Assembly (NCBI GenBank): GCA_902767135.1
Contig: CACXGE010000066.1
Span: 5,313 to 69,312, forward strand
DNA from: an uncultured Lachnospiraceae bacterium
Lineage (GTDB): Bacteria; Bacillota; Clostridia; Lachnospirales; Lachnospiraceae
Length of the DNA: 64,000 nt
Direction of reading: 5' to 3'
The first letter of the stretch is position 1, and each line of letters begins with the position of its first letter. Shown in pieces: positions 9,698 to 58,156 of the stretch. The notes beneath the pieces were generated by a model. The model was not told the origin of the DNA and did no database searches. It saw only the letters and a list, made by a program, of their open reading frames with translations. The position numbers and the translations under genes were made by a program.

Positions 9698-9776
9698 ACG
9701 TTTTGTTCCTCTCTTCTTTCTATATATCAGACCATAGTTGTATTGTAACTATTCCGCAGTTCTGAACAGATACATT

Positions 9777-23989: not shown

Positions 23990-24024
23990 CAACGTTACTC
24001 TCCTTCCTTAGATTGCTTATATCC

Positions 24025-24096
24025 TATCTGCTTAGAACAACAAAGCAGATACACAAAATTTATTTATCATAACTGTTTAGAACCACTGAACAGTTA
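24025..24096 (-). repeat. Two adjacent palindromic units between the 610-aa pilin gene and the giant gene
   Basis: 24070-24096 reads TAACTGTTTAG-aacca-CTGAACAGTTA (11 bp, one wobble) and abuts the TAG stop at 24097-24099. 24025-24051 reads TATCTGCTT-9 nt-AAGCAGATA. Both arms belong to the GTAWCWGTTYAG word family seen elsewhere in the window. Confidence 0.65.
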
Positions 24097-25929
24097 CTAT
24101 TTTTCTACTACAGTCAGGTCTTTTCGTCCATAAAGCTCTGTTCCTTTTAACTGAAGGAATACCCCAAACTGCTTGGTCTTTACACTGTTACCAATACTGA
24201 CATGAACACCATCCTCTGCGATATAAGCATTGGAGTTCTGCATACTAGGATTGGTATACACATCAAGGTCACTTGCGTCTGCCTTCAGACCTGTTACCTT
24301 ATATTCCAGTACAACACCAGCATTTTTCTTGATGGTGCCGGCACCATTTAATGTAACGCCTACCACTGGAATCTTTACTGTTACCGGAAGGGGCTGACTG
24401 ATACTTACCGAACCGGAATTACTGGTGAGTTCTGCAATCACCTTCACAATATATTCTTTTTCGTAGTTAATGTCCTTTGCAATTTTCATCATTCCATTAT
24501 TTGCCACGGAAATTTTTCCCGAATCAACTAAAAGCTTGGTATCACTGTTTGTCATATCCAGTTTCCACAAAACTGTCAAATCTGAGTTGGTTAAATTGTT
24601 CCCCAACACATCCTCCTGCAAATCTACGGTCTCATTTCTATTGGCTTCCAAGTCGCTTACAAAGCTGACTCCTGCCTCTACTACCGTGAATTTATAATCT
24701 GCAGTGACCGATGGATTAAATTTACTGGTCACATGAATGGTATATTCATTTCCCACAGTTCCCGCTTCCAGATTGATAATACCGGATTCCGACAACACCT
24801 TACATCCACTTGCATCGTTCTTTGAACTTCCCAGTACCTGGTAATCCACCTGGGTCACTGCTCTTTGCAGGTCCTTGGTCAGTAGGCTCACATCGGAAAT
24901 ATTGGTGACTGCTTCCGCCTTCACCTGGAACAGACTGTTGGCTTTCTGCTTATCTCCATCTGGTGTTGCGTATAAGCTGATAGCTGTTACCTTCAATATC
25001 GTTGCTTTCAATTTCTGTGATACCTTAGTATCATCAGACACTGAAGTTGCCTGAACCGCCACCTCATCTAAATTGCAATTTAGTGGCACATTGATTGTTC
25101 CACTATTGTCAATCCAGTCTAACTCATTTCCTGCTGCATCAAACAACTTCCATGACACGGTCTGGGATGGGATTCCACTACCCTTTACTTTTGCTCTGGC
25201 ACGATAGCTTTTTCCTGGAAGAAGGTACTGGCTGTTTAAGCTTACTTCCACATCTGTCACAGCAGAATAATCTTCTCCCGGACTGAAAATCGCACCACTG
25301 TCTGTGGTAGCAATATAAATATTATTTCTCATTGCCACAGTTTTGTTGGAGGTAAAACTGCCTCCTTTCTCTGTGATTTCAATTGCAATTTCTATCTGCT
25401 GTTTTTTGTTGGCACTGGAAGTGGCAACCACGATAGGAGTCACGCTGGGATCCGGAGTGGCACTTACATAACCAACAGGAGCTGCCTTGCTCTCTCCCTT
25501 TTGGAGCAACTTAAAGTCTGTTACATTCTCAGCCACCACTTCACTTTTATCCATACCACTGAAATTGGCAATTTCCACTCCCGCAGAGGACAGATAATAA
25601 ATCTTCTGATCCCCCATATCATATACAAAATATTCATATAGAGGATTTCCACTGGAGTCAAGATTGTAAATCGTCAACACCTTACGGTCTGCATCTTCCC
25701 TGCAGGTTACCCCCTTCTGGGCATCTAAGATGCGATTCTCAATGGCAGAAACGGCAAGCTGGGCTCTCTCCTGCTTTCTTATTTCGTCATGGGAACTCCC
25801 AAACAGCCTGGTACCTGTCACCATAAAGGAGGTAACCGTGACGATGACAATACTGATAATGGCTACTGCGATTATCATTTCCACCAAAGATAAACCTTTA
25901 TTATTTTTGATATGTTTTATATTCTTCAT
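24097..25929 (-). CDS. Modular minor pilin: prepilin-type N-terminus fused to about 570 aa containing Ig-like (Big_2-like) repeats
   Basis: MKNIKHIKNNKG/LSLVEMIIAVAIISIVIV is a class III signal with Glu at +5 and a hydrophobic alpha1N. The C-terminal part carries repeats such as VSWKLFDAAGNELDWIDNSGTINV and VLWKLDM...GKISVANNGMMKI. The SD is GGGGGAAG. Confidence 0.85.
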   Translation of the reverse strand: MKNIKHIKNNKGLSLVEMIIAVAIISIVIVTVTSFMVTGTRLFGSSHDEIRKQERAQLAVSAIENRILDAQKGVTCREDADRKVLTIYNLDSSGNPLYEYFVYDMGDQKIYYLSSAGVEIANFSGMDKSEVVAENVTDFKLLQKGESKAAPVGYVSATPDPSVTPIVVATSSANKKQQIEIAIEITEKGGSFTSNKTVAMRNNIYIATTDSGAIFSPGEDYSAVTDVEVSLNSQYLLPGKSYRARAKVKGSGIPSQTVSWKLFDAAGNELDWIDNSGTINVPLNCNLDEVAVQATSVSDDTKVSQKLKATILKVTAISLYATPDGDKQKANSLFQVKAEAVTNISDVSLLTKDLQRAVTQVDYQVLGSSKNDASGCKVLSESGIINLEAGTVGNEYTIHVTSKFNPSVTADYKFTVVEAGVSFVSDLEANRNETVDLQEDVLGNNLTNSDLTVLWKLDMTNSDTKLLVDSGKISVANNGMMKIAKDINYEKEYIVKVIAELTSNSGSVSISQPLPVTVKIPVVGVTLNGAGTIKKNAGVVLEYKVTGLKADASDLDVYTNPSMQNSNAYIAEDGVHVSIGNSVKTKQFGVFLQLKGTELYGRKDLTVVEK

Positions 25930-25947: not shown

Positions 25948-26502
25948 TTATTTTTTTGCACCGTTGATATAAATATCTGTTTTTCCGGTGACTTTACTTA
26001 TGGTAATGTACATACCGCTACCTACAGGATTGGAGGCATTGGATACATATATTTTCTTCAGGTATGCTCCACTACCACTCTCCGGCAGTAAGCCTCCAGT
26101 GGCTCTGTCAAAACACACATACCCCGGATTACTGCTGTCTACTGTCTGTGTTGTGCCATCAGAATATTCTAATGCCACATAAATTTTGCTGTTTCCAATC
26201 TTTTCTGCATCCATTCCGGCAATTTCAGCATCAGAATTGGTCATGTCTACATAGTGCAGTACACATCCTGTGGAATCCTTGGTAATTTTCAAGGCAATAT
26301 CTCTTGATTGGATAGACTTTGTCGTAGTATAGCTCTGCGTTTTCATCAAAGCACTGTTTAGTTTCTTTAAGCTGCTCTTTACATTGGTGCTGTATAGATA
26401 ACCCACACCAACGACCACGGTACTTGTCACAATAGATAGAATTGCTATGACGATAATCAGCTCTATCAGAGAGAAGCCTTTGTTGTTATGTTTTATTTTC
26501 AT
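25948..26502 (-). CDS. Minor pilin (prepilin-type N-terminal cleavage/methylation domain protein)
   Basis: MKIKHNNKG/FSLIELIIVIAILSIV is the canonical G/FxxxE motif. 184 aa, SD GGGGGAAG. Confidence 0.88.
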   Translation of the reverse strand: MKIKHNNKGFSLIELIIVIAILSIVTSTVVVGVGYLYSTNVKSSLKKLNSALMKTQSYTTTKSIQSRDIALKITKDSTGCVLHYVDMTNSDAEIAGMDAEKIGNSKIYVALEYSDGTTQTVDSSNPGYVCFDRATGGLLPESGSGAYLKKIYVSNASNPVGSGMYITISKVTGKTDIYINGAKK

Positions 26503-30470: not shown

Positions 30471-30597
30471 GTAACAGTTTCACCCATAAGTTGAACTGTT
30501 ACAAAATGGAGCAACACTTCACATTTTAAATTGCCCCATTTTTGTTAAATCAATGTTCTTATACGGTCAGCCCAAAGACTGCGCCAACCTGCCTGAA
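30471..30597 (-). repeat. Three-hairpin intergenic repeat, copy C (reads in element orientation on the minus strand)
   Basis: Aligns over about 127 nt with copies at 52865-52994 and 54425-54552. Shared blocks are TTCAGGCAGGT, GCTGACCGT, ATTTAACAAAAAT-GGGCAATTT and GTAACAGTT...AACTGTTAC, and all three stems are preserved. Confidence 0.8.
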
Positions 30598-30618
30598 CGT
30601 TACATGTCTATTGCAACT

Positions 30619-34255: not shown

Positions 34256-34699
34256 TTAATTTGGCGTAACGTTGCCGTTACTATTTGTGTATGTAATATT
34301 ACAAGCCGGCCACTGGGTATTGGAAAATTTCACTTCGATTTTGGAATAGCTTTTACTTACCAATCGTGTTTTGTCATAATTTGTGCCCAGTACCGATTTT
34401 AAATAAGTGTCCAAATGGCTAGGGTTAGCCCCCGCCCCCGTGGCACTTATGATAACATCTCTGTTGGGAGTCAAAGTTATGATGTATTCGCCCCCCTCCA
34501 TGTTTTCTTCTTCATCACTGAGAAGCATGGCACAACTTTTGCGAATTTCGTCTGCCTGTCTTTCATCTTTAGCCACCCTGGACTTTTCCACATATTTTAC
34601 ATACTGTGGTGCAAGGATTGCTATCAATACTGCCATGATTGCCACAACAATAATCAGCTCAACCAAAGAAAAGCCTGCATCCCGTCCTTCTTTCTCCAT
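34256..34699 (-). CDS. pilA: Type IV pilin (second of a tandem pair)
   Basis: MEKEGRDAG/FSLVELIIVVAIMAVLIAILAPQYVKYVEKSRV. The track start at 34705 is GTG, and ATG 34699 follows GGAAGG. 147 aa. Confidence 0.88.
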   Translation of the reverse strand: MEKEGRDAGFSLVELIIVVAIMAVLIAILAPQYVKYVEKSRVAKDERQADEIRKSCAMLLSDEEENMEGGEYIITLTPNRDVIISATGAGANPSHLDTYLKSVLGTNYDKTRLVSKSYSKIEVKFSNTQWPACNITYTNSNGNVTPN

Positions 34700-34723: not shown

Positions 34724-35164
34724 CTATTTCGTATAATTATTTGTAGGATCAGATACTGTTACAGTCGGAACCTTAATATTAGCATTATTTGGATCTGCTT
34801 TAAACTCAACTTTGATAGTTACAGTCTTAGAATTATATGTCTTAGACTTTAAATTAGCATTTGCGATACTAGTCAATGCTGAAATTTCTGTTGATGCCTG
34901 AGTATCACTAACTGATGCCCCAGCTGTTCCACCTGTAATACTGATTGTAAAATCATTAGTAATCTGTGAATCTGGATCTGATACAGCTGTTTCTGCTGAC
35001 TTCTTCAGTTCATCAAGAGTATCTACGTCTGCTGACACTCTTGACTTTTCTACATACTTCATGTACTGTGGTGCTAAAATACCAATTAAGATAGCCATAA
35101 TAGCTACTACGATGATAAGTTCTACTAATGAGAAACCTTTGTTGTTTGAAAATCTCTTCTTCAT
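34724..35164 (-). CDS. pilA: Type IV pilin, likely the major subunit
   Basis: MKKRFSNNKG/FSLVELIIVVAIMAILIGILAPQYMKYVEKSRV. 146 aa. It is the first pilin after pilC, preceded by a 117-nt AT-rich spacer and a strong SD (GGAGAGAG). Confidence 0.9.
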   Translation of the reverse strand: MKKRFSNNKGFSLVELIIVVAIMAILIGILAPQYMKYVEKSRVSADVDTLDELKKSAETAVSDPDSQITNDFTISITGGTAGASVSDTQASTEISALTSIANANLKSKTYNSKTVTIKVEFKADPNNANIKVPTVTVSDPTNNYTK

Positions 35165-48416: not shown

Positions 48417-48446
48417 ACGCTTCTCCCTCTTTCATCTTCTCAACGC

Positions 48447-48471
48447 ATCTGTTCAGAATCCCGGAACAGAT
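48447..48471 (-). repeat. Palindromic unit (ATCTGTTC-9 nt-GAACAGAT) in the leader of the glycan cluster
   Basis: 8-bp perfect stem using the same ATCTGTTCAG word as hairpin 3 of repeat copy A and the metY-stop hairpin. Confidence 0.55.
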
Positions 48472-48512
48472 ACTGTAAATACCAAGACTGCACGGAATCC
48501 TTGTCTTAAAAC

Positions 48513-52816: not shown

Positions 52817-52840
52817 AACCTTCCGAATCATTGGAAGGTT
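52817..52840 (-). terminator. Stem-loop with flanking T-runs (bidirectional-looking terminator), 33 nt upstream of the ABC exporter start codon
   Basis: AACCTTCC-8 nt-GGAAGGTT. The minus strand continues TTTTATTAAAAAAAG and the plus strand continues CTTTTGTCTGTATTTTT. Confidence 0.65.
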
Positions 52841-52864
52841 CTTTTGTCTGTATTTTTGTAACTT

Positions 52865-52994
52865 TTCAGTACAGGTCTCAGCATTTACTGCTGAGACCGT
52901 AAGAAAATATACATTTTACAAAAATCGGGCAATTTTATATGCGTAAGCATTGCCCGATTTAACGTATCTGTTCAGTAATTCTGAACAAATACGT
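52865..52994 (+). repeat. Three-hairpin intergenic repeat, copy A
   Basis: Hairpin 1 (52874-52898): GGTCTCAGCA-tttac-TGCTGAGACC. Hairpin 2 (52923-52959): AATCGGGCAAT-15 nt-ATTGCCCGATT. Hairpin 3 (52962-52994): ACGTATCTGTTCAG-taatt-CTGAACAAATACGT. Confidence 0.85.
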
Positions 52995-53018
52995 AGTTGT
53001 TTATTTATACTTATATTG

Positions 53019-54377
53019 TTATCTTTCCTGCATCTTTAAATAATGCTTAGGTTCTGTGACACTCATATAAGCAGGACGAATAATCTTATCCACATTGACA
53101 AGTTCCTCAATTCTATGGGCACTCCATCCTACAATTCTGGCAATAGCAAACATTGGTGTGTACAACTCCAACGGAATATCCAACATACTGTACACAAAGC
53201 CACTGTAAAAGTCCACATTGGCACTGACACCTTTATAAATGGAACGTTCTTTTGCAATTACCTTCGGTGCAAGCACCTCAACTTTGGAATACAAGTCATA
53301 TTCATCTTCTCGTCCCTTTTCTCTGGAAAGTTGCTCCACAAATGCTCTGAAAATGGTTGCTCTCGGATCAGATATAGAATATACCGCGTGTCCCATTCCA
53401 TAAATCAGTCCCTTCTTATCAAAGGCTTCTTTGTTTAAAAGTTTGCTTAAATATTCTTCAATCTGGTCATCATCTTTCAGATCCTTCACATTTTTCTTTA
53501 AGTCTTCCATCATTTCTACTACTTTAATATTTGCACCGCCATGTTTTGGTCCTTTCAAGGAAGACAAAGCCGCTGCAATGGTAGAGTAGGTATCTGTTCC
53601 TGAGGAAGATACCACATGGGTTGTAAAGGTAGAATTGTTTCCGCCTCCATGTTCCATATGAAGCATAAATGCAATATCCAACACTCTGGCTTCCAGCGCA
53701 GAATATTTCATATCCGGCCGTAACATTCTGATGAAATTCTCCGCCATGGATAAATTTTCATCCGGTCTGTGGATATACAAACTTCCATTGTTCTCATAAT
53801 GATTATAGGCATGGTAACTATATACCGCCAACATTGGAAATACACTGATTAACATCAGACACTGTCCTAATACATTGGGGATGGAAATATCTGATACCGC
53901 ATCATCATAGGATGCCAAGGTCAAGACACTTCTAGAAATAGAATTCATCATATCTTTGCTTGGAGCCTTCATAATAACATCTCTCACAAAGTTTGTGGGC
54001 AAAGTTCTGCTTTTTGCCAATAAATGTTTAAAGGAATCCAACTGTGACATACTTGGCAACTCGCCGAACAACACCAGATAAGCAACCTCTTCATATCCAA
54101 ATCTTTGTTCTTCCACGTCACCTTTTACCAAATCATTGATATTGTATCCTCGATACAATAATTTTCCTTCACAAGGTATTTTTTTTCCATCCACATTGTC
54201 AAACGCCTGAATATGGGATACCTTTGTAAGACCTGCCAATACTCCGGTTCCTGACTTATCTCTAAGACCTCTTTTCACATCGTATATGTCATAAAGTTCC
54301 TGCTCTATTTTGCAATTATTCTCACATATATGAGCCAGTTCCTCTACTTTCTGATTCCAATTACCAAAATCAACCAT
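53019..54377 (-). CDS. Citrate synthase (citrate/2-methylcitrate synthase family)
   Basis: 452 aa with catalytic-site motifs GMGHAVY, HGGGNNST and the overall family pattern. The SD is GGGAGGAA. Confidence 0.92.
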   Translation of the reverse strand: MVDFGNWNQKVEELAHICENNCKIEQELYDIYDVKRGLRDKSGTGVLAGLTKVSHIQAFDNVDGKKIPCEGKLLYRGYNINDLVKGDVEEQRFGYEEVAYLVLFGELPSMSQLDSFKHLLAKSRTLPTNFVRDVIMKAPSKDMMNSISRSVLTLASYDDAVSDISIPNVLGQCLMLISVFPMLAVYSYHAYNHYENNGSLYIHRPDENLSMAENFIRMLRPDMKYSALEARVLDIAFMLHMEHGGGNNSTFTTHVVSSSGTDTYSTIAAALSSLKGPKHGGANIKVVEMMEDLKKNVKDLKDDDQIEEYLSKLLNKEAFDKKGLIYGMGHAVYSISDPRATIFRAFVEQLSREKGREDEYDLYSKVEVLAPKVIAKERSIYKGVSANVDFYSGFVYSMLDIPLELYTPMFAIARIVGWSAHRIEELVNVDKIIRPAYMSVTEPKHYLKMQER

Positions 54378-54424
54378 TCACGTTCCTCCCTTTTCTATCT
54401 TTCCATTCAGTATATTCATAACAG

Positions 54425-54552
54425 TTCAGGCAGGTCTGCGCATTTACTGCGCTGACCGTGCAAAAAGTGCATTTAACAAAAATCGGGCAATTTTGCATGC
54501 GTAAGCATTGCCCGATTACGTAACAGTTTAGCCTATGGCTAAACTGTTACGT
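54425..54552 (+). repeat. Three-hairpin intergenic repeat, copy B
   Basis: Hairpin 1 at 54433-57, hairpin 2 at 54481-517, hairpin 3 at 54518-52. Hairpin 2 is nearly identical to copy A. Hairpin 1 differs from copy A by two compensatory base-pair swaps. Confidence 0.85.
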
Positions 54553-54784
54553 ATATTCATTCACCGCAAAAGATGGATCTGTTCATAATTTGATAACGAC
54601 CATACACTTTAAGTAATACTTACTTTTACTGAATAGTTACCGAATAGTTTACATAATACCAAATTTTTACTTCTTTAGCAAGAAATCAAGACATTTCTTT
54701 ATATTTTTTTAAGAAAAGAAGAAAAAAGGACATGACGATAAGCCATGACCTTCTTCTTTATCCTCTATTTTCGTCCCTGATTTC

Positions 54785-56465: not shown

Positions 56466-56492
56466 CACTTCTTCAATTAACAAGTTTTATAT

Positions 56493-56513
56493 CTGTTCAG
56501 AACTACTGAACTG
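56493..56513 (-). repeat. Palindromic unit spanning the metY stop codon
   Basis: CTGTTCAG-aacta-CTGAACTG. The TAG stop (56503-56505) lies in the loop. It uses the same word family as 52962-52994. Confidence 0.5.
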
Positions 56514-57810
56514 CTTTGAAAGCCTCTTCTAAATCTTCAATAATATCATCAATATTTTCTGTTCCAATGGATAATCTGATGGTATTTGGCTTAATACCCT
56601 GGTCTAACAGTTCTTCTTCCGTGCTCTGACTATGAGTTGTGGTTGCCGGATGGATAACCAGTGATTTTACGTCTGCCACATTAGCCAGCAATGAGAACAG
56701 CTCTAAGTTATCGATAAAGTCCTGTGCTTTTTTTGCATCTCCCTTAATCTCAAAGGTAAAGATAGAACCTCCTCCATTTGGGAAATACTTTTTATATAAT
56801 TCCTGCTGCTTTGGATCTGTAGATACCGCCGGATGATTTACTTTCTCCACCTGTGGATGATTATTTAAGTATTCTACCACCTTCAAAGCGTTAGACACAT
56901 GACGTTCTACTCTTAAGGAAAGAGTTTCCAATCCCTGCAGGAAGAAGAATGCATGGAACGGTGAAAGGGTGGCTCCTGTGTCACGAAGTAAGATAGCACG
57001 AATCTTGGTTACAAAAGCTGCCGGACCTACTGCCTTGGTAAAGCTGATTCCGTGGTAGCTTGGATTTGGCTCTGTGAGAGATTTAAACTTTCCGGATGCC
57101 TCCCAATCGAATCTACCGCTGTCCACAATCACACCACCGATGGTTGTTCCATGTCCCCCGATAAATTTGGTAGCAGAGTGTACTACAATGTCGGCACCAT
57201 ATTCAATTGGTCTTACCAGATATGGTGTGGCAAAAGTATTATCCACAACCAACGGAACCTTGTTTTCATGGGCAATGTTGGCAATGGCTTCAATGTCCAC
57301 CACATCTGAATTTGGGTTTCCTAATGTCTCTATAAAAATTGCTTTTGTATTTTCCTGAATGGCTGCCTTTACTTCTTCCTCATTAAAAATATCTACGAAG
57401 GTAGTCTGGATTCCGTACTGTGGCAGCGTATGCTGTAATAAATTAAAGGAACCACCATAAATATTCTTTGCTGCCACAATATGATCTCCTGCCTGAGCCA
57501 GGTTCTCAATGGTGTAGGTAATTGCCGCTGCACCAGAGGCAACTGCCAAAGCTGCTACACCACCTTCTAAGGCTGCAATTCTCTTTTCAAAAACGTCTTC
57601 CGTTGGATTTGTCAATCGTCCATAAATATTTCCTGCATCTGCCAATCCAAATCTGTCTGCTGCATGCTGACTGTTACGGAAAACGTAAGATGATGTCTGA
57701 TAGATTGGTACCGCCCTTGCGTCTGTCACTGGATCCGGGTTTTCCTGTCCTACGTGTAACTGTAATGTTTCAAATTTTAAATTTCTTTCTGCTCTTGTTT
57801 TCTTACTCAT
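56503..57810 (-). CDS. metY: O-acetylhomoserine sulfhydrylase (aminocarboxypropyltransferase)
   Basis: 435 aa, PLP-dependent Cys/Met metabolism family. FETLQLHVGQ...YQTSSYVF...HSATKFIGGHG includes the PLP lysine motif. Confidence 0.93.
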   Translation of the reverse strand: MSKKTRAERNLKFETLQLHVGQENPDPVTDARAVPIYQTSSYVFRNSQHAADRFGLADAGNIYGRLTNPTEDVFEKRIAALEGGVAALAVASGAAAITYTIENLAQAGDHIVAAKNIYGGSFNLLQHTLPQYGIQTTFVDIFNEEEVKAAIQENTKAIFIETLGNPNSDVVDIEAIANIAHENKVPLVVDNTFATPYLVRPIEYGADIVVHSATKFIGGHGTTIGGVIVDSGRFDWEASGKFKSLTEPNPSYHGISFTKAVGPAAFVTKIRAILLRDTGATLSPFHAFFFLQGLETLSLRVERHVSNALKVVEYLNNHPQVEKVNHPAVSTDPKQQELYKKYFPNGGGSIFTFEIKGDAKKAQDFIDNLELFSLLANVADVKSLVIHPATTTHSQSTEEELLDQGIKPNTIRLSIGTENIDDIIEDLEEAFKAVQ

Positions 57811-57899: not shown

Positions 57900-57995
57900 T
57901 CATGCTCTTTCATACGCCTTCATATATTTACAGCAATCCAAACCGCACATGACAGATACTACTGTTACTCTCTCTTTTATTTTCACAACTCTCAT
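57900..57995 (-). CDS. Candidate 31-codon small ORF rich in Cys and Met, upstream of metY
   Basis: AAAGGAG-7 nt-ATG, encoding MRVVKIKERVTVVSVMCGLDCCKYMKAYERA*. It lies 89 nt upstream of metY. Support is only the strong SD, the spacing and the context. Confidence 0.25.
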   Translation of the reverse strand: MRVVKIKERVTVVSVMCGLDCCKYMKAYERA

Positions 57996-58156
57996 AACAT
58001 CACTCCTTTGATTGCCTTGTTCCTTGTTTTATGTTTCTCTTGCTTACAAACATATATTAACACTACTATTCCTACTTGTCTACTAGGTAATTTTTATAGC
58101 TGGTTATAACTTTTTCTTATAGCAACTGTTTTCTTACAGAAATTCCGCAAACTGGA

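Follow-up and report, generated by a model that had tools for sequence, protein, structure and literature searches.

A non-coding miniature transposable element with IS66-type ends on both sides of a citrate synthase gene in an uncultured Lachnospiraceae bacterium

In a 64,000-nucleotide stretch of DNA from an uncultured Lachnospiraceae bacterium (GenBank assembly GCA_902767135.1, contig CACXGE010000066.1, positions 5,313 to 69,312; hereafter the window), a citrate synthase gene is flanked by two copies, A and B, of a repeat with three hairpins. These repeats are copies of a non-coding miniature inverted-repeat transposable element (MITE) of ~134 bp: two independent insertions bracket citrate synthase, and a third copy (C), which is inverted, lies in a pilus gene cluster. 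The MITE is very probably moved in trans by a DDE transposase of the IS66 family (of the ISBst12 type, with a single open reading frame [ORF]) that is encoded elsewhere in the genome. A first-pass annotation of the sequence had offered three identities for the repeats, namely an orphan structured small RNA (sRNA), a BOX/RUP/REP-like mobile intergenic element, and a recombination substrate around citrate synthase. The second of these proved essentially right.

Anatomy, copy number, and target-site duplications

The boundaries of the element were fixed from its terminal inverted repeats together with the target duplications. The terminal repeats are 12-14 bp long (GTAAC(A/T)(G/A)TTCAG...CTGAAC(A/T)G(T/A)TAC), and full-length copies measure 133-136 bp, which is too short for a transposase gene. 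Among 39 distinct full-length copies, the 8-mers on the two sides of the element match at 8/8 positions in 26 copies and at 7/8 in another 7; these flanking 8-mers are alike within each site and different from site to site. Terminal inverted repeats, a site-specific duplication of fixed length, small size, and high copy number together identify the element as a MITE.

Copies beyond the window were sought by scanning one genome per species with the core of hairpin 2, and the copies were then read with their flanks. At least 36 full-length copies, plus shortened ones, are present in the metagenome-assembled genome (MAG) of Lachnospiraceae bacterium fecal_MAG_445 (JBGVDD01); among the matches listed, nearly all carriers of the full element belong to this MAG, and one further full-length copy is in RUG231. 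MAG JBGVDD01 holds two subfamilies, which correspond to copies A and B of the window and have terminal repeats GTAACTATTCAG...CTGAACAGATAC (subfamily A) and GTAACAGTTCAGGC...GGCTGAACTGTTAC (subfamily B). Further subfamilies, found on human-gut contigs, have the same hairpin 1 and ends, a different middle hairpin, and perfect 8-bp duplications. All copies with classifiable neighbours are intergenic; 12 are in forward and 8 in reverse orientation, 4 are flanked by divergent genes, and 2 by convergent genes. BLAST searches with the MITE gave no match in plasmids and, in phages, only related MITEs in human-gut contigs; similarly, a scan for the hairpin 1 pattern in viral contigs picked out two loci, which are MITE variants and include no insertion sequence (IS).

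The window contains exactly three full copies, as found with a covariance model built from the 39 copies (E-values of 1.7e-32 to 2.6e-21), and the conserved core has three exact occurrences there versus 0.19 expected by chance. Copies A and B form a direct repeat on the plus strand, and every neighbouring gene is on the minus strand, as the first-pass annotation had described, with ends that are now refined (Table 1). The TTCAG that it had placed at the front of the element is present, but forms the inner portion of the left terminal repeat (GTAAC..TTCAG) and is not the element start. The third copy that it had reported is likewise real, but extends further and has the opposite orientation to A and B. 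The duplication at copy B is perfect. The flanks of copy C, read in element orientation (ATAGACAT / ATAGACTT), agree at 7/8 positions, and those of copy A (GTATTTTT / GTAGTTGT) at 6/8, from which copy A looks like an old insertion.

Ends shared with IS66-family insertion sequences

Members of the IS66 family generally have GTAA ends and direct repeats of 8-9 bp, as tabulated in ISfinder. The MITE ends begin with 5'-GTAA and are accompanied by an 8-bp direct repeat, as in the ISBst12 group of this family. An IS66-like element on plasmid pHTA426 of Geobacillus kaustophilus has the ends GTAACTATTCAGCCC...GGGCTGAATAGATAC, with AACTCGTC on both flanks; its left end agrees with the subfamily A left repeat at 12/12 nt, and its right end agrees at 11/12 positions (GTAACTATTCAG...CTGAATAGATAC). 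ISDge4 of Deinococcus geothermalis, also of the ISBst12 group, has the ends GTGACTACTCAGCA and GTAACTGCTCAGCA and an 8-bp direct repeat (PMC12898284).

Related transposases also occur in MAG JBGVDD01 and in gut metagenomes. A tblastn search with the Geobacillus transposase detected an IS66-family transposase fragment in MAG JBGVDD01 (locus L038, 7073-7996; E 2.6e-30), which stops at the contig end and has a left end, GTAACTGTTCAGAACCC, ~340 nt upstream. A metagenome scan with this fragment retrieved 80 loci, in 64 of which the transposase gene lies between GTAACT(G/A)TTCAG and CTGAA(C/T)AGTTAC, most often 1817 bp apart; perfect 8-bp duplications flank 16 of the 64 bounded elements. The encoded proteins score above the curated cut-offs of PF03050 (DDE_Tnp_IS66) and NCBIfam NF033517 (IS66 family transposase), and the gut-metagenome ISs have one long ORF each, which is the ISBst12-type layout. 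One of them (L107), a 94% identical relative of L038, is a complete IS with both ends and a perfect duplication and matches both PF03050 and NF033517. In the recovered ISs, position 6 of the terminal repeat is T (GTAACTG or GTAACTA), which fits subfamily A of the MITE. These ISs also have a small hairpin adjoining the left repeat on its inner side (e.g. GAACCC-TAG-TGGGTTC), at the position of MITE hairpin 1.

The similarity between the MITE and these ISs is confined to their termini. Neither the sequences of hairpins 1 and 2 nor the covariance model matched anything in the 80 IS loci, and only the terminal 12-16 bp are common to both. Among the retrieved loci, terminal repeats spaced 1-4 kb apart were only pairs of separate MITEs and yielded no parent IS, and an all-against-all BLAST of the MAG loci revealed no repeat >250 bp. 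The MITE differs from ISBst12-group ISs in being 134 bp long without a transposase gene, in having hairpins 1 and 2 without counterpart in the recovered ISs, and in having a right end that is a full palindrome of the terminal repeat.

From the ends and the duplications we infer that the MITE is mobilized in trans by an IS66-family transposase. The transposase would recognize the 12-14 bp terminal repeats GTAAC(A/T)(G/A)TTCAG, and insertion at a staggered 8-bp cut would give rise to the 8-bp duplication. The right end is a double site, in which an internal copy of the left repeat and the terminal repeat together form hairpin 3; the interior (hairpin 1, spacer, and hairpin 2) would be of non-IS origin.

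Citrate synthase loci with and without the element

In contigs that encode a 94% identical citrate synthase, the order aspartokinase, citrate synthase, ABC transporter is kept and both MITEs are missing. The intergenic regions are correspondingly shorter (220 vs 407 nt and 85 vs 235 nt), alignments place the absence of copies A and B in relatives L187 and L188, and the covariance model found no match at the relatives' loci. Divergence at the empty sites is too great for a single intact target 8-mer to be recognized. The first-pass annotation had proposed comparing related strains for presence or absence of the repeats and of the citrate synthase gene; the repeats do vary among relatives, and the gene is present in the relatives that lack them. 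Within the species, 22 contigs encode an identical aspartate kinase, and the spacing between aspartokinase and citrate synthase is unchanged wherever citrate synthase is reached, which indicates that the insertions are fixed in the species.

Six independent short-read contigs of ~1.5 kb (L003-L008) contain citrate synthase only and end at 52947-52965 and 54447-54448, inside copies A and B. These contigs fit de Bruijn assembly breaks at a multi-copy repeat and are not evidence of excision.

Hairpins and covariation

A three-hairpin fold is predicted on both strands for copies A, B, and C, with z-scores of -4.1 to -11.6 relative to shuffles. In the alignment of 39 copies, pairing holds in 96.3% of cells and both partners change at 9 pairs, a level that 0/500 shuffles reach. 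In hairpin 1, pair 20/38 is C-G, G-C or U-A, pair 22/36 is G-C or C-G, and pair 23/35 is C-G, A-U or U-A; in hairpin 2, pair 71/101 is C-G or G-C; and in hairpin 3 there is a switch between A-U and U-A at two pairs. The two double substitutions that the first-pass annotation had described in hairpin 1 (C-G to G-C and A-T to C-G) are confirmed, and copy B has in addition a T.T mismatch in the stem, which is shared by 27/39 copies and is a trait of subfamily B. The covariation is real, but it reflects few events, mostly the split of the transposon into subfamilies A and B.

Hairpin 3, described in the first-pass annotation as a different but equally strong palindrome in each copy, is not an arbitrary one. 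Its two arms are the right terminal repeat and the internal copy of the left one, and it is subfamily-specific. The paired changes in hairpin 3 would equally fit two putative binding sites of one transposase changing together. Hairpin 1, located 3-4 nt inside the left repeat, is the most conserved part of the interior and is common to at least four subfamilies that otherwise differ in their interiors, its pairing being preserved between subfamilies through compensatory changes; from this we infer that it matters for propagation of the element or for how well the host tolerates it. The G+C-rich stem of hairpin 2 comprises 12 bp, with A5 before and T3-T5 after it, and this hairpin resembles an intrinsic terminator usable both ways, predicted to be stronger on the reverse strand, the one represented in the citrate synthase mRNA at copies A and B.

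Neither hairpin betrays a preferred strand. Across the 39 copies, wobble pairs are divided between the strands 4 vs 5 in hairpin 1 and 6 vs 2 in hairpin 2, without a strand preference, and the orientations relative to flanking genes (12, 8, 4, and 2, as above) lack the bias expected from selection for a terminator. With unbiased wobbles and unbiased orientation, nothing points to a transcript from one particular strand. We consider it possible, though doubtful, that the interior of non-IS origin, with hairpin 1 and the terminator-like hairpin 2, is a selected functional module, either a mobile insulator or two-way terminator, or a structured site in RNA or DNA needed by the transposition machinery, which would have been spread in Lachnospiraceae by an IS66-type transposase.

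Weighing the alternatives

Several observations weigh against a MITE mobilized by an IS66-family transposase. No intact autonomous IS was detected in the window by tblastn, and no IS was seen in the window's own organism; the IS copy of MAG JBGVDD01 is cut off by the contig end. No IS with the subfamily B end GTAACAG is among the recovered ISs. An origin of the MITE by internal deletion of an IS was considered and dropped, since its interior has no similarity to the ISs. The duplications at copies A and C are decayed, and no insertion polymorphism was seen within the species (among contigs with identical neighbouring proteins), so that recent activity in this lineage is unproven. Finally, the roles proposed above for hairpins 1 and 2 are read from their sequences.

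A structured sRNA or cis-regulatory RNA family (a leader, attenuator, or riboswitch-like element), in which the copies are paralogous regulatory sites acting via the three hairpins, would account for the strong fold (z-scores down to -11.6), the compensatory changes, and the position of copy B in the inferred 5' untranslated region (UTR) of citrate synthase, and copy C folds ~11 kcal/mol better on the forward strand, owing to G.U pairs. We nevertheless find this explanation very improbable. The window has no Rfam match at gathering thresholds, and relaxed E-values gave only hairpin-driven noise at the locus; the copies are in both orientations to transcription and beside unrelated genes; and the wobble counts show no strand preference. 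Site-specific 8-bp duplications and absence from the orthologous intergenic regions of relatives would also be unexpected for a conserved regulator. Even less credible is a REP/BIME-type palindrome spread by a RAYT (Y1, HUH) transposase, or a palindrome-associated element of the IS200/IS605 type. The solo palindromes of 29-31 nt scattered in intergenic regions (see below) and the full element's appearance as a mosaic of hairpins are reminiscent of such systems, but REP and IS200/IS605 types lack target-site duplications and terminal inverted repeats, whereas 26/39 copies here have perfect duplications and the ends match DDE-type elements of the IS66 family. No RAYT turned up, although no search aimed at RAYT was made.

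A further alternative would make copies A and B, with citrate synthase between them, one functional unit, be it a composite transposon, a cassette, or a pair of sites for deletion through homologous recombination. It is suggested by the arrangement of A and B as direct repeats 1.56 kb apart, by the inverted relationship of the pair's outer ends, and by the many ~1.5-kb contigs that hold citrate synthase alone and end inside both copies. This explanation is also very unlikely, because copy B has its own perfect duplication and was inserted independently, each copy having a duplication of its own, and because in relatives the citrate synthase locus is the same but contains neither copy. Moreover, the spacing of aspartokinase and citrate synthase is constant among the contigs with identical aspartokinase that reach citrate synthase, the longest exact match between A and B is ~21 nt, and short contigs are what a de Bruijn assembler is expected to produce on entering a multi-copy repeat. 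The citrate synthase cassette of the first-pass annotation is therefore not upheld, and neither is its orphan sRNA.

Comparison with known systems and significance

Like RUP of Streptococcus pneumoniae, Correia of Neisseria, and MITEPsy of Pseudomonas syringae, the MITE is a short intergenic element without coding capacity that is present in many copies and has terminal inverted repeats and target duplications. All three presumably rely on an IS transposase acting in trans, RUP being IS630-related, and their stable hairpins can affect neighbouring transcripts. The MITE differs from these elements in its partner family (IS66/ISBst12 here versus IS630 for RUP and possibly IS5 for MITEPsy1), in its duplication of 8 bp rather than TA, and in having three local hairpins rather than one end-to-end hairpin. 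With REP and BIME of enterobacteria and pseudomonads it shares short intergenic palindromes, which occur singly or in mosaics and are in some cases terminator-like; unlike these, which are tied to RAYT transposases, it has terminal inverted repeats and target duplications and matches DDE-type ISs.

We found no description of a Lachnospiraceae MITE or of an IS66-related MITE in the literature searched, the coverage of which is incomplete. The family thus seems to be undescribed, although it is an ordinary kind of mobile DNA. Its recognition explains a conspicuous repeat, makes further work on it as a new RNA or a citrate synthase cassette unnecessary, and accounts for the short-read assembly breaks at these loci. 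It also links a MITE family of uncultured gut and rumen Lachnospiraceae to single-ORF transposases of the IS66/ISBst12 type, which have been little studied, provides a clean set of ends, duplications, and subfamilies usable for studying end recognition by the transposase, and offers a case in which a terminator-like hairpin was carried into the inferred 5' UTR of a central metabolic gene.

Genomic context of the copies in the window

The citrate synthase ORF (53019-54377, minus strand; Pfam Citrate_synt, E 2.6e-117) has an ABC transporter gene downstream and genes for aspartokinase and O-acetylhomoserine sulfhydrylase upstream, and is not part of a tricarboxylic acid cycle cluster. Copy A lies after its stop codon and before the gene's own terminator. 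Copy B is 40 nt 5' of the start codon; because the predicted promoter-like site upstream is kept in relatives without the MITE, copy B is placed within the inferred 5' UTR. Copy C is situated between two pilus-related genes.

Table 1. Coordinates of the MITE copies, their parts, and associated features in the window
Feature	Position	Strand	Details
MITE copy A	52858-52992	+	Subfamily A, 135 bp; covariance model 129.5 bits, E 6.6e-27
Copy A, left terminal repeat	52858-52869
Copy A, hairpin 1	52874-52898
Copy A, hairpin 2	52922-52960
Copy A, hairpin 3	52964-52992
MITE copy B	54418-54550	+	Subfamily B, 133 bp; covariance model 154.8 bits, E 1.7e-32
Copy B, left terminal repeat	54418-54429
Copy B, hairpin 1	54433-54457
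Copy B, hairpin 2	54480-54518
Copy B, hairpin 3	54520-54550
Copy B, target-site duplication	54410-54417 (left), 54551-54558 (right)		GTATATTC; 8/8 match
MITE copy C	30471-30603	-	Divergent, inverted relative to A and B; 104.2 bits, E 2.6e-21
Copy C, hairpin 3	30471-30502
Copy C, hairpin 2	30503-30542
Copy C, hairpin 1	30565-30589
Copy C, left terminal repeat	30593-30603
Promoter-like site of citrate synthase	54653-54681	-	TTGCTA, 17 nt, TATTAT, upstream TG; from consensus match and conservation
Native citrate synthase terminator hairpin	52817-52840		AACCTTCC...GGAAGGTT, then a T run; kept in relatives; copy A is upstream of it
Solo palindrome, 29 bp	24069-24097		ATAACTGTTTAGAACCACTGAACAGTTAC; left and right terminal repeat only; flanks TATTTATC / TATTTTTC, 7/8
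Solo palindrome, degenerate	24024-24052
Solo palindrome	9745-9773		GTAACTATTCCGCAGTTCTGAACAGATAC; flanks 6/8
Solo palindrome	48445-48473		GCATCTGTTCAGAATCCCGGAACAGATAC; just 5' of a minus-strand gene start; flanks 2/8, no recognizable duplication
Partial palindrome	56489-56514		ATATCTGTTCAGAACTACTGAACTGC; overlaps the 3' end of the O-acetylhomoserine sulfhydrylase gene
Isolated terminal-repeat-like 12-mer	54629-54640	-	GTAACTATTCAG; adjoins the near-duplicate GTAAACTATTCG; near copy B

No riboswitch or T-box was found by Rfam anywhere in the window, despite its sulfur amino acid genes. A 31-codon ORF was called at ~57900-58000 (L001 6383-6478), between the cysteine synthase-like and O-acetylhomoserine sulfhydrylase genes. 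The pilus cluster contains a 56-nt repeat in four copies (25850-25905, 26432-26487, 34629-34684, and 35091-35146), which are located on the minus strand at gene starts and are 63-75% identical; these repeats probably encode the common N-terminal prepilin (N_methyl) segment of several pilin-like genes.

Solo palindromes and terminal-repeat remnants

The palindrome formed by the two terminal repeats also occurs alone, as a unit of 29-31 bp, and is represented several times in the window (Table 1). In MAG JBGVDD01, two solo palindromes have perfect 8-bp duplications (L032 3492-3522 and L056 6967-6997). Solo palindromes may be deletion remnants (left end x internal copy) or minimal mobile units; if they are truly transposable, they would be among the smallest mobile DNA elements known.

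The isolated 12-mer near copy B gives, together with hairpin 3 of that copy, a weak match to the full model (54520-54640, 42.3 bits). A right-repeat-like sequence, ATGAACAGATCC, is also present between 54565 and 54640, and relatives lack a 9-nt insertion there. The segment 54565-54640 may be a decayed element of ~75 bp or a local duplication.

Shortened copies, a deletion, and a second palindromic repeat

Three copies in which the left repeat and hairpin 1 are missing (L032 1870-1987, L045 599-730, and L078 6180-6293) start near GTGCATTTAAC. Each is directly 3' of the stop codon of a housekeeping gene, and the terminator-like hairpin 2 and hairpin 3 remain, which may represent retention of a useful half. 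Their interpretation as right ends of ISs was rejected, because they follow housekeeping genes and have no transposase nearby.

One human-gut locus exists in two forms (L104 553-668 vs L102 4235-4420), of which L104 lacks the right half of the MITE and ~60 nt of flank. The deletion runs between two copies of a 10-nt direct repeat, GAAGGCAAAA, and was seeded by the MITE.

An unrelated second palindromic repeat is present in MAG JBGVDD01 (L038 911-943, L045 495-525, and L063 1249-1281). Its sequence is GTTACTGT(A/G)CACAGG.A.CCTGTG.ACAGTAAC, with a conserved (C/G)ATTTCAGCC motif before or after it, and it may constitute another small repeat family.

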